From a bacterium (lineage in GTDB: Bacteria; Bacillota_I; Bacilli_A; Acholeplasmatales; JAEDCM01), in contig JAILKD010000048.1 in assembly GCA_024694145.1 (NCBI GenBank), forward strand, positions 1-52,124: a stretch of 52,124 nt of DNA, given 5' to 3'. The position numbers were made by a program, and so were the translations under genes. Positions 24,672-24,899 of this stretch are shown here, one piece after another (within the stretch, counting starts at the first letter, position 1; the number at the start of each line of letters is the position of its first letter). The notes under the pieces were generated by a model. That model was given only the letters and a program-made list of their open reading frames with translations, was not told the DNA's origin and did no database searches.

Positions 24672-24698
24672 TAAAAGAAAAGAGCCATCAAGGCTCTT
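24672..24698 (-). terminator. Leader terminator 2 (attenuator)
   Basis: AAGAGCC-TTGAT-GGCTCTT-TTCTTTT on the minus strand, between promoter and first ORF. Confidence 0.8.
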
Positions 24699-24760
24699 AT
24701 TTAACAATATACTCATACACCATATGATGGTGTAATCTTTGCTAATATCAAGATGCCTTG

Positions 24761-24787
24761 AAAAAGAAAAAACCACACCAAGTGGTT
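24761..24787 (-). terminator. Leader terminator 1 (attenuator)
   Basis: AACCAC-TTGGT-GTGGTT-TTTTCTTTTT on the minus strand. Confidence 0.8.
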
Positions 24788-24870
24788 CATTATTGTAAAA
24801 TATACTCATGCATTAATTCTAGGTGCAATCTTTACAAAACTCACTTGGACTTTTCTCAAGTTATGCCCTT

Positions 24871-24899
24871 ATTTTAATACCTTTATATAATAAAGTCAA
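24871..24899 (-). promoter_or_regulatory. Sigma-A promoter of the amino-acid ABC operon
   Basis: TTGACT-17bp-TAAAAT. Confidence 0.75.

Follow-up and report, generated by a model that had tools for sequence, protein, structure and literature searches.

Leader RNA upstream of the importer genes

The window analysed here is the whole of contig JAILKD010000048.1 (52,124 nucleotides, nt), and the element in question is a leader RNA at positions 24673-24899 which, like all of its features, lies on the minus strand and precedes the genes of a polar amino-acid ATP-binding cassette (ABC) importer. The leader carries two copies of a compact hairpin motif in series, and this motif is a real and apparently undescribed attenuator of the arginine regulon in Acholeplasmatales. 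The type of leader, in which a terminator competes with an antiterminator, is itself known; that the motif represents a new class of attenuator acting on the arginine regulon is very probable. The features of the leader are as follows (P1, P2 and P3 being the helices of a unit from the outside inwards, and R2 a covariance model of the motif).

24899-24871, minus strand: sigma-70-type promoter, TTGACT and TAAAAT separated by 17 nt (scan tool, 10 of 12 matches)
24861-24843, minus strand: small hairpin ACUUG/CAAGU, which can trap the 5' arm of unit 1 as an alternative to the enclosing helix (sequence; terminator-forced fold)
24848-24838, minus strand: 5' arm of P1 of unit 1, CCAAGUG-A-GUU (sequence)
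24837-24793, minus strand: core hairpin of unit 1 (sequence; 46.5 bits with R2)
24788-24761, minus strand: terminator 1 with its U tract, whose 5' half (24787-24778) doubles as the 3' arm of P1 in unit 1 (scan tool: stem of 7 pairs, loop of 5 nt, T-rich tail)
24761-24750, minus strand: 5' arm of P1 of unit 2, UCAAGGC-A-UCUU, which folds on itself as UCAAG-GCAU-CUUGA at 24761-24748 (sequence; folds)
24745-24701, minus strand: core hairpin of unit 2 (sequence; 64.6 bits with R2, the top covariance-model match of the genome)
24698-24673, minus strand: terminator 2 with its U tract, the 5' half of which (24698-24688) is also the 3' arm of P1 of unit 2 (scan tool)

Judging from the spacing, the transcript would be expected to start near 24864. 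Each unit consists of a core hairpin of ~45 nt (70-75 nt including the arms), closed by P1 (7 bp, one bulged base, 3-4 bp), of which the 3' strand is at the same time the 5' half of the terminator. In unit 1, P1 is formed by 24848-24838 with AAC-CACUUGG (24787-24778), i.e. 7 bp, a bulged A and 3 bp, followed by P2 (UUGUAA/UUACAA, 24837-24832 with 24798-24793), the 5' loop strand AGAU (24831-24828), P3 (UGCA/UGCA, 24827-24824 with 24812-24809) and the 3' loop strand UGAGUAUA (24808-24801), to which two additional U are appended. In unit 2, P1 pairs 24761-24750 with AAGA-GCCUUGA (24698-24688), again with a single bulged base, P2 is UUAGCAA/UUGUUAA (24745-24739 with 24707-24701), AGAU and UGAGUAUA lie at 24738-24735 and 24715-24708, and P3 (UACACC/GGUGUA) extends from 24734 to 24716. 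The loop strands of the two units are thus identical, while the sequences of P1, P2 and P3 all differ. The folds with a forced terminator show a further option for each 5' arm of P1, namely pairing with a few nucleotides immediately upstream of it.

The scan tool placed terminator-like sites on the minus strand at 24788-24770 and 24698-24680, and counted four such sites in 451 nt versus 0.1 expected from shuffles. A loose pattern of the core occurs twice in the window versus 0.14 times expected (none of 100 shuffles gave two), and a stricter pattern occurs three times in the 1.57 Mb of the organism's own genome versus not at all in the reversed control. Each unit combines a hairpin and U tract with a mutually exclusive upstream pairing, which is what defines an attenuator based on an intrinsic terminator. 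Attenuation through a leader peptide finds no counterpart here, as no Shine-Dalgarno sequence with a start codon precedes the units in the leaders that were read, and the apparent reading frames through the hairpins are not preserved as the loop length varies (19 versus 17 nt between the core words). Metatranscriptome contigs of four runs cover the leader, one of them spanning unit 2 and the binding-protein gene, although such contigs from RNA libraries show the presence of the leader alone, neither its ends nor its levels, and may include carried-over DNA; stretches left uncovered count neither for nor against expression.

A preliminary description of the leader, made from its sequence, had listed the TTGACT-17-TAAAAT promoter, two 45-nt units 92 nt apart (starting at 24837 and 24745), an identical internal loop below a variable apical loop, stems that change while keeping their pairing, a U-tailed terminator for each unit and, for each, an arm complementary to its own terminator. 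All of this is confirmed by the scan tool and the sequence, with the addition of the one-base bulge in each arm, which had gone unmentioned. Likewise upheld is the idea of a serial pair of complete attenuators, in which every unit has a terminator of its own and an enclosing helix that competes with it.

Genes downstream of the leader

The leader is followed by the genes of the importer, in agreement with its earlier placement upstream of a polar amino-acid ABC operon, which the Pfam and NCBIfam matches bear out:

24650-24645, minus strand: ribosome-binding site AAGGAG (sequence)
23838-24650, minus strand: substrate-binding protein gene together with this ribosome-binding site, start codon at 24635 (Pfam SBP_bac_3, 132 bits)
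23052-23834, minus strand: permease gene (Pfam BPD_transp_1; NCBIfam polar amino-acid transporter models)
21974-23062, minus strand: ATPase gene (Pfam ABC_tran; NCBIfam polar amino-acid transporter models)

The best NCBIfam model for the binding protein is that of a lysine/arginine/ornithine binding protein (with a score under its cut-off), and its nearest solved structures are arginine and glutamine binders. The ATPase (362 amino acids, aa) has a split ABC_tran match (~23-129 and 224-360), with ~90 residues of unknown nature inserted between the two parts.

The third copy of the core in the genome leads to a second locus, on contig C100, where the same kind of two-unit leader precedes argG, the gene for argininosuccinate synthase (598 bits versus an NCBIfam cut-off of 334); on a longer metagenome contig, argG is followed by argH, argC and argJ. 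Unit 2 is nearly base-for-base identical between the two loci of the genome, and two other species of the genus have both loci, or one. Scanning metagenome contigs by pattern yielded 59 stretches, including 16 that matched twice. Of the 21 tandem leaders read from genomes and metagenomes, 12 stand ahead of a lipoprotein-like binding-protein gene and 8 ahead of argG, the remaining one being cut off (downstream genes assigned by eye from their N-termini). Because the leader also precedes argGHCJ, the regulon is read as that of arginine, and would comprise its biosynthesis (argGHCJ) together with what is likely an arginine importer.

Some further observations concern these genes and their surroundings. 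A conserved DNA box, TGAAAACG(C/T)T(A/T)T, is located ~25-45 bp upstream of the -35 element, both in the window (24924-24935, minus strand) and at the second locus (C100:9187-9198, minus strand), and also upstream of leaders in a sister family (L104, L106, L108 and L196-L200); it has seven sites in the own genome versus two for the reversed control. The box resembles a catabolite-responsive element and may add control at the level of transcription initiation. Outside the own genus, the nearest relatives of ArgG in a collection of species genomes are clostridial (71-79% identity), with other Bacilli at 46-71%, which hints at a horizontal acquisition of the arg genes of this lineage. On one contig (L086, 7130-10693, plus strand) argJ is immediately followed by genes for a 723-aa pretoxin-HINT protein and a 462-aa Sel1-repeat/SUKH-1 protein, which have the look of a polymorphic toxin/immunity pair. 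In the window itself, the region upstream of the leader encodes a BspA-type leucine-rich-repeat protein (25604-27220, minus strand).

Comparison with catalogued RNAs

No RNA family in Rfam 15 matches the units. At gathering thresholds, the only matches in the whole window lay away from the leader, namely an L10 ribosomal leader and the genes of two transfer RNAs (tRNAs) at 44098-44219 and 2853-3035 (both plus strand), and with expectation values (E) up to 10 the region 24500-25050 gave four chance-level matches of 12-19 bits, on the region of the terminator and ribosome-binding site. Related leaders from other genomes likewise gave nothing but the T-boxes that adjoin the units. The T-box model (RF00230) has no match in the window or in the leaders of its family, while the true T-boxes adjoining units elsewhere score 98-115 bits. 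The preliminary description had called the element a riboswitch-like attenuator of unrecognised class, which these scans uphold. Its list of excluded classes fares differently in its two parts: the exclusion of T-box, lysine, glycine, glnA, S-adenosylmethionine (SAM) and PyrR elements is supported by the Rfam scans, whereas that of ribonucleic antiterminator (RAT) and ANTAR elements was judged from reading the sequence alone.

Searches of the full-text literature (as distinct from supplementary motif lists), including passages of PMC5473149 and PMC8632094, found neither a description of the motif nor a validated bacterial arginine riboswitch, and a review passage among these two sources dismisses a fungal claim.

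Distribution among relatives

The motif is shared between the family of the window (f1) and a sister family in the same order (f2). In a sister genus of f1 (genome G003), three units, each with its own terminator, precede argG; the sequences of the helices are all new, while the core is the same. The argG leaders of f2 are built differently, with one unit and its terminator, then a T-box with its terminator, and then argG. A direct search found the unit at 28 of 30 argG loci of f2 (26 of them at E < 0.001), and of the two loci without it one has a T-box only and the other a truncated upstream region. The downstream T-box was recognised by Rfam in L106, L107 and L110, and by reading in those three as well as in L108, L196, L197, L199 and L200; its specifier is an arginine codon in 5 of the 8 leaders read and UGA in the other 3. 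In one f2 genus without argG, a pair of units precedes a binding-protein gene. Altogether the core has been kept, with all helices replaced, in both families and in at least five genera. Carriers belong to genera g1, g2, g4, g11 and g24, and the motif was not found in genera g13, g15 and g16 or in families f3 and f4.

The UGA specifiers belong to three species of genus g4 (L106, L107 and L199), of which sister species have CGC, CGU or CGA at the same position. UGA is one transition away from CGA, and a G-U wobble might still allow it to pair with tRNA-Arg(ACG).

Beyond these two families the motif was not found. It turned up at none of 79 clostridial-type argG loci (searched with default filters) and at none of 19 argG loci of other families of Bacilli (filters off, best score 15.6 bits), 8 of which have a T-box. 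The order's two other large families gave no argG match in the first place, in 0 of 121 and 0 of 22 genomes respectively. Because genome-wide searches lose many true members, such taxonomic limits mean 'not found' rather than 'absent'. Genome-wide searches with R2 reported 11 of 106 f2 genomes, compared to the 28 of 30 argG loci of f2 that were positive when searched directly, and they missed genome G093 although its locus L206 scores 37.6 bits. The class-level R2 search, in which the own genome was the only one of 151 to match, is for this reason a weak result, superseded by the direct searches of argG loci. Two other approaches were discarded: an earlier model (R1), built from three near-identical units, found the genus only (3 of 151 genomes), an artefact of a narrow model and strict filters, and the loose core pattern was useless over 201 relatives, with as many matches as in the reversed control.

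A separate match of 28 bits was found on human-gut contigs (L063, 5940-5989, minus strand; identical in L044, L047, L054, L060 and L081), consisting of AAAGAU, a 6-bp stem and UGAGCAUA. Its enclosing helix (11 of 12 bp) overlaps a terminator, and it is located ~250 nt upstream of the gene for a 472-aa protein without a Pfam family, with a divergent ketol-acid reductoisomerase gene nearby. This gene context is unrelated, and the match was left out of the counts; it may be due to chance, or else represent a distant member that serves another regulon.

Conserved structure and covariation

The conserved core consists of a stem of free sequence, P3, between the words AAAGAU on the 5' side and UGAG(U/C)AUA on the 3' side. 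In a set of 40 distinct units, aligned to the model, standard pairs occupy 89.5% of the cells, versus 72.7% in shuffles (0 of 500 reach the observed value) and 33-53% when the partners are slid, although the fit to the model and the kinship of the units both favour pairing. Nine of the 13 pairs change on both sides, including all six of P3, and P3 is known as at least six unrelated sequences, a point that is independent of the model alignment. Among 42 distinct units, neither the length nor the sequence of the apical loop is constant, 0-9 extra bases are tolerated after the 3' word, and the one bulged base of the enclosing helix is A or U.

The helix P2, which closes the loop formed by the two words, behaves differently. 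At least five contiguous pairs are present in 31 of 36 distinct f1 units versus 1 of 6 in f2, and the two A and two U at its top (two A-U pairs) never covary. In 28 f2 leaders the would-be 5' strand of P2 varies without compensation, while a segment of the 3' flank, AUAAUUAUG, and its complement further downstream, CAUAAUUAU, are invariant. As a candidate riboswitch, the element thus has a conserved core, a P3 supported by covariation and platforms that differ between the families, but a P2 that is not kept in f2. Given that P2 is not kept across the families, it resembles an expression platform rather than a binding site, which speaks for an effector that turns expression off.

Switch architecture and the favoured mechanism

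In f1, the helix that adjoins the core on the read-through side is P2 continued by P1. Predicted energies of the P1 state and the terminator state are -19.7 versus -17.0 kcal/mol for unit 1, and -26.3 versus -25.4 kcal/mol for unit 2. In 5 of 5 units folded, the P1 state has the lowest free energy even though no effector is present, and it also forms in transcripts that are cut before the 3' half of the terminator. All five unit types of f1 (including the three of G003) have a small hairpin able to capture the 5' arm, in each case with a different sequence.

In f2, the corresponding read-through helix is formed by AUAAUUAUG (the end of the 3' flank together with the former P2 strand), which is complementary to CAUAAUUAU ~15-22 nt downstream. 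This pairing excludes a hairpin between segments 1 and 2, leaving segment 2 free to pair with segment 3, so that the terminator (segments 3 and 4) is withheld; the pairings 1:2, 2:3 and 3:4 each covary between genera. An enclosing helix for f2, in which segment 1 would pair with the 3' strand of the upstream hairpin, was considered and rejected as not general: it suits some leaders but fails where the upstream hairpin is simple (L205, L208, L210, L214 and L225). When the pairing of the flank with its downstream complement is forced in f2 folds, the predicted terminator persists, and the energies leave the sign of the switch unsettled.

The favoured explanation is that of a tandem, uncatalogued cis-regulatory motif that attenuates the arginine regulon through effector-induced termination, which as a whole is put forward tentatively, at a little short of an even chance. 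An effector bound to the core would pull the flanks of the core out of the adjoining read-through helix, upon which the freed 5' arm would fold into the small upstream hairpin and the terminator would form, so that expression is off with the effector. The effector would signal arginine sufficiency, being preferably an arginine-loaded RNA-binding protein that replaces ArgR or else arginine itself, and serial copies (or one copy combined with an arginine T-box) would multiply the repression.

That the effector causes termination rather than read-through is, on its own, somewhat likelier than the opposite. This direction is favoured because in f2 occupancy of the core removes the flank from the read-through helix, because P1 is the ground state of all five f1 units and is formed before the terminator is complete, and because each f1 unit has an upstream hairpin ready for the freed 5' arm. 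Both families control argG, and the sign of the switch is therefore taken to be the same in both. By analogy, off-switching would also fit the end-product control of a biosynthetic operon.

A number of observations weigh against off-switching by arginine sufficiency. The gaps between the P1 and terminator states (0.4-2.7 kcal/mol in the five units) are within the error of the model. The predicted minimum-free-energy fold of f2 leaders is the terminator register even without effector, which points to OFF as the default state there. The closed conserved fold excludes the terminator, as it would in a conventional ON switch, in this window, G003, L085 and the first unit of genus g24 (L109, L198). 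In the g24 unit the closing helix is 1 nt away from the core on the 5' side but 9 nt away on the 3' side, and it is therefore hard to see how it would be opened by occupancy of the core. In addition, no candidate effector protein was found, and the lossy genome-wide RNA searches leave the taxonomic limits soft.

Nature of the effector

ArgR appears to be absent from the carrier lineage, to judge from domain searches. Its N-terminal domain (PF01316) was not found in the one genome searched (the own genome, 84% complete), and its C-terminal domain (PF02863) in none of 5 carrier genomes, with controls positive in 8 of 14 reference genomes; completeness reaches 95% or more in three of the five carriers. 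A divergent 194-aa gene next to the leader (24994-25578) was considered as the regulator and rejected, as it belongs to no Pfam or NCBIfam family and has homologues in 1 of 5 carrier genomes, confined to the genus.

A protein is marginally preferred over a small molecule as the effector. The two single-stranded words at the base of a free stem, the tolerance of extra bases and the loss of the closing helix in f2 would suit an RNA-binding protein slightly better than a small-molecule pocket. It is rather unlikely, yet worth stating, that the core, i.e. P3 and the words AAAGAU and UGAGYAUA zipped together below it, represents the first natural class of riboswitch aptamer for arginine. Employed singly ahead of a T-box, or as two or three copies, it would then shut off both synthesis and import in bacteria that have lost ArgR.

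Alternative explanations

The reverse direction, in which a signal of shortage (a metabolite, an alarmone such as (p)ppGpp, or an antiterminator protein) stabilises the core hairpin with P2-P1 and thereby withholds the 5' half of the terminator, requires all units to be occupied, and is doubtful rather than implausible. It agrees with the fact that all simple platforms (both units of this window, the three of G003, the first unit of g24 and L085) have an outer helix that overlaps the terminator, and the small upstream hairpins would kinetically favour termination as the default outcome. The motif moreover stands in series with T-boxes, or replaces them, and these are themselves ON-type. ppGpp riboswitches have been reported in tandem with T-boxes. 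Homologues of RelA/SpoT are present in 5 of 5 carrier genomes, which is compatible with an alarmone. Against this stand the main platform of f2, which ties the 3' flank of the core to the read-through helix, so that occupancy should terminate, as well as the loss of P2 in f2 and the fact that P1 is already the predicted ground state without effector; in general, no small molecule is known to rise specifically upon a drop in arginine. The preliminary description had proposed switches of the ON type, stabilised by a ligand. This fits the architecture of the window, but the effector-free ground state of the five f1 units and the f2 platform, which reads an occupied core as termination, speak for the opposite sign.

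A miniature T-box-like sensor of uncharged tRNA-Arg, in which AGA within AAAGAU would serve as the codon, is very improbable. AGA is indeed an arginine codon, the motif takes the place of the T-box before argG in f1, and the 3' loop strand presumably resembles the S-turn side of a specifier loop. The T-box covariance model, however, misses the units while matching the real T-boxes beside them, the freely varying apical loops leave no platform for the tRNA elbow, and the enclosing helix, with just a one-base bulge, offers the tRNA 3' end no conserved place to pair. An uninterrupted run of at least five bases complementary to one of the loop strands occurs in none of the 5 tRNA-Arg genes (out of 26 tRNAs found), and in f2 such a sensor would duplicate the T-box that follows. 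As a separate observation, the variable-loop region of tRNA-Arg(CCU) holds a hexamer identical (not complementary) to the 5' word of the core, which is likely chance in ~2 kb of tRNA.

Even less credence is given to the conserved words being a DNA operator for a repressor, with the RNA folds incidental. This would account for the invariance of AAAGAT and TGAGTATA, for an 8-base palindrome that is repeated ~25 nt apart in f2, and perhaps for the separate conserved DNA box upstream of the promoters, but the stems that separate and surround the words covary, something that binding at the DNA level would not call for, each unit has a terminator and competing helix with sequences of its own, and ArgR domains were not found. 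Equally improbable are effector-free attenuators with a fixed level of termination, or a recent duplication without regulatory role: the units are indeed nearly identical within the genus, and the two loci of the own genome share unit 2, but in two families and at least five genera all helices have been exchanged around an unchanged core, and the association with arginine genes is strict among the loci examined.

Relation to known systems and significance

One close counterpart is the arginine T-box (RF00230), which likewise attenuates transcription ahead of argG in Bacilli, often in series, with its own terminator and antiterminator, and which adjoins the unit on its downstream side in f2 and stands alone before argG in other families. 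The new units differ from it in their core of ~45 nt, the lack of any T-box score, the variable apical loops and the lack of a conserved antiterminator bulge.

TRAP (trp leader) and PyrR (pyr leaders) mediate attenuation by the end product through a protein. The likeness to these systems lies in the biosynthetic operon, in the repeated attenuators and, if termination is indeed induced by the effector, in a protein loaded with end product that binds words overlapping an antiterminator; the binding words differ, the PyrR family in Rfam gives no match, and membership cannot be claimed.

RAT hairpins are the targets of antiterminator proteins of the BglG/LicT family. They too are short hairpins with conserved internal-loop bases, a lower part that competes with the terminator and a tandem arrangement, but RAT overlaps the terminator directly and serves sugar catabolism, and its conserved bases differ from those of the new units.

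Small rod-like or tandem riboswitches (for lysine, glycine and glutamine), finally, have conserved loop bases between covarying helices, a lineage-specific platform and serial copies, and are mixed with T-boxes as the present motif is. The new motif departs from them in that the helix closing its loop is missing in f2, which is unusual for a small-molecule pocket.

The textbook form of arginine control in bacteria is ArgR. In the parts of the literature that were searched, arginine is among the few amino acids without a validated bacterial riboswitch. Any effector of the present motif would be new, whether it is arginine, an arginine-dependent RNA-binding protein or a starvation signal. The element is short and modular and comes with matched terminators, which makes it a potentially useful genetic part. 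As to the organisms themselves, a lineage that has kept argGHCJ, apparently without ArgR, has a compact, repeated RNA element where its relatives carry an arginine T-box, and the arrangements that range from the T-box alone, through one unit with a T-box, to two or three units form a natural evolutionary series for the replacement of one RNA-based control by another.

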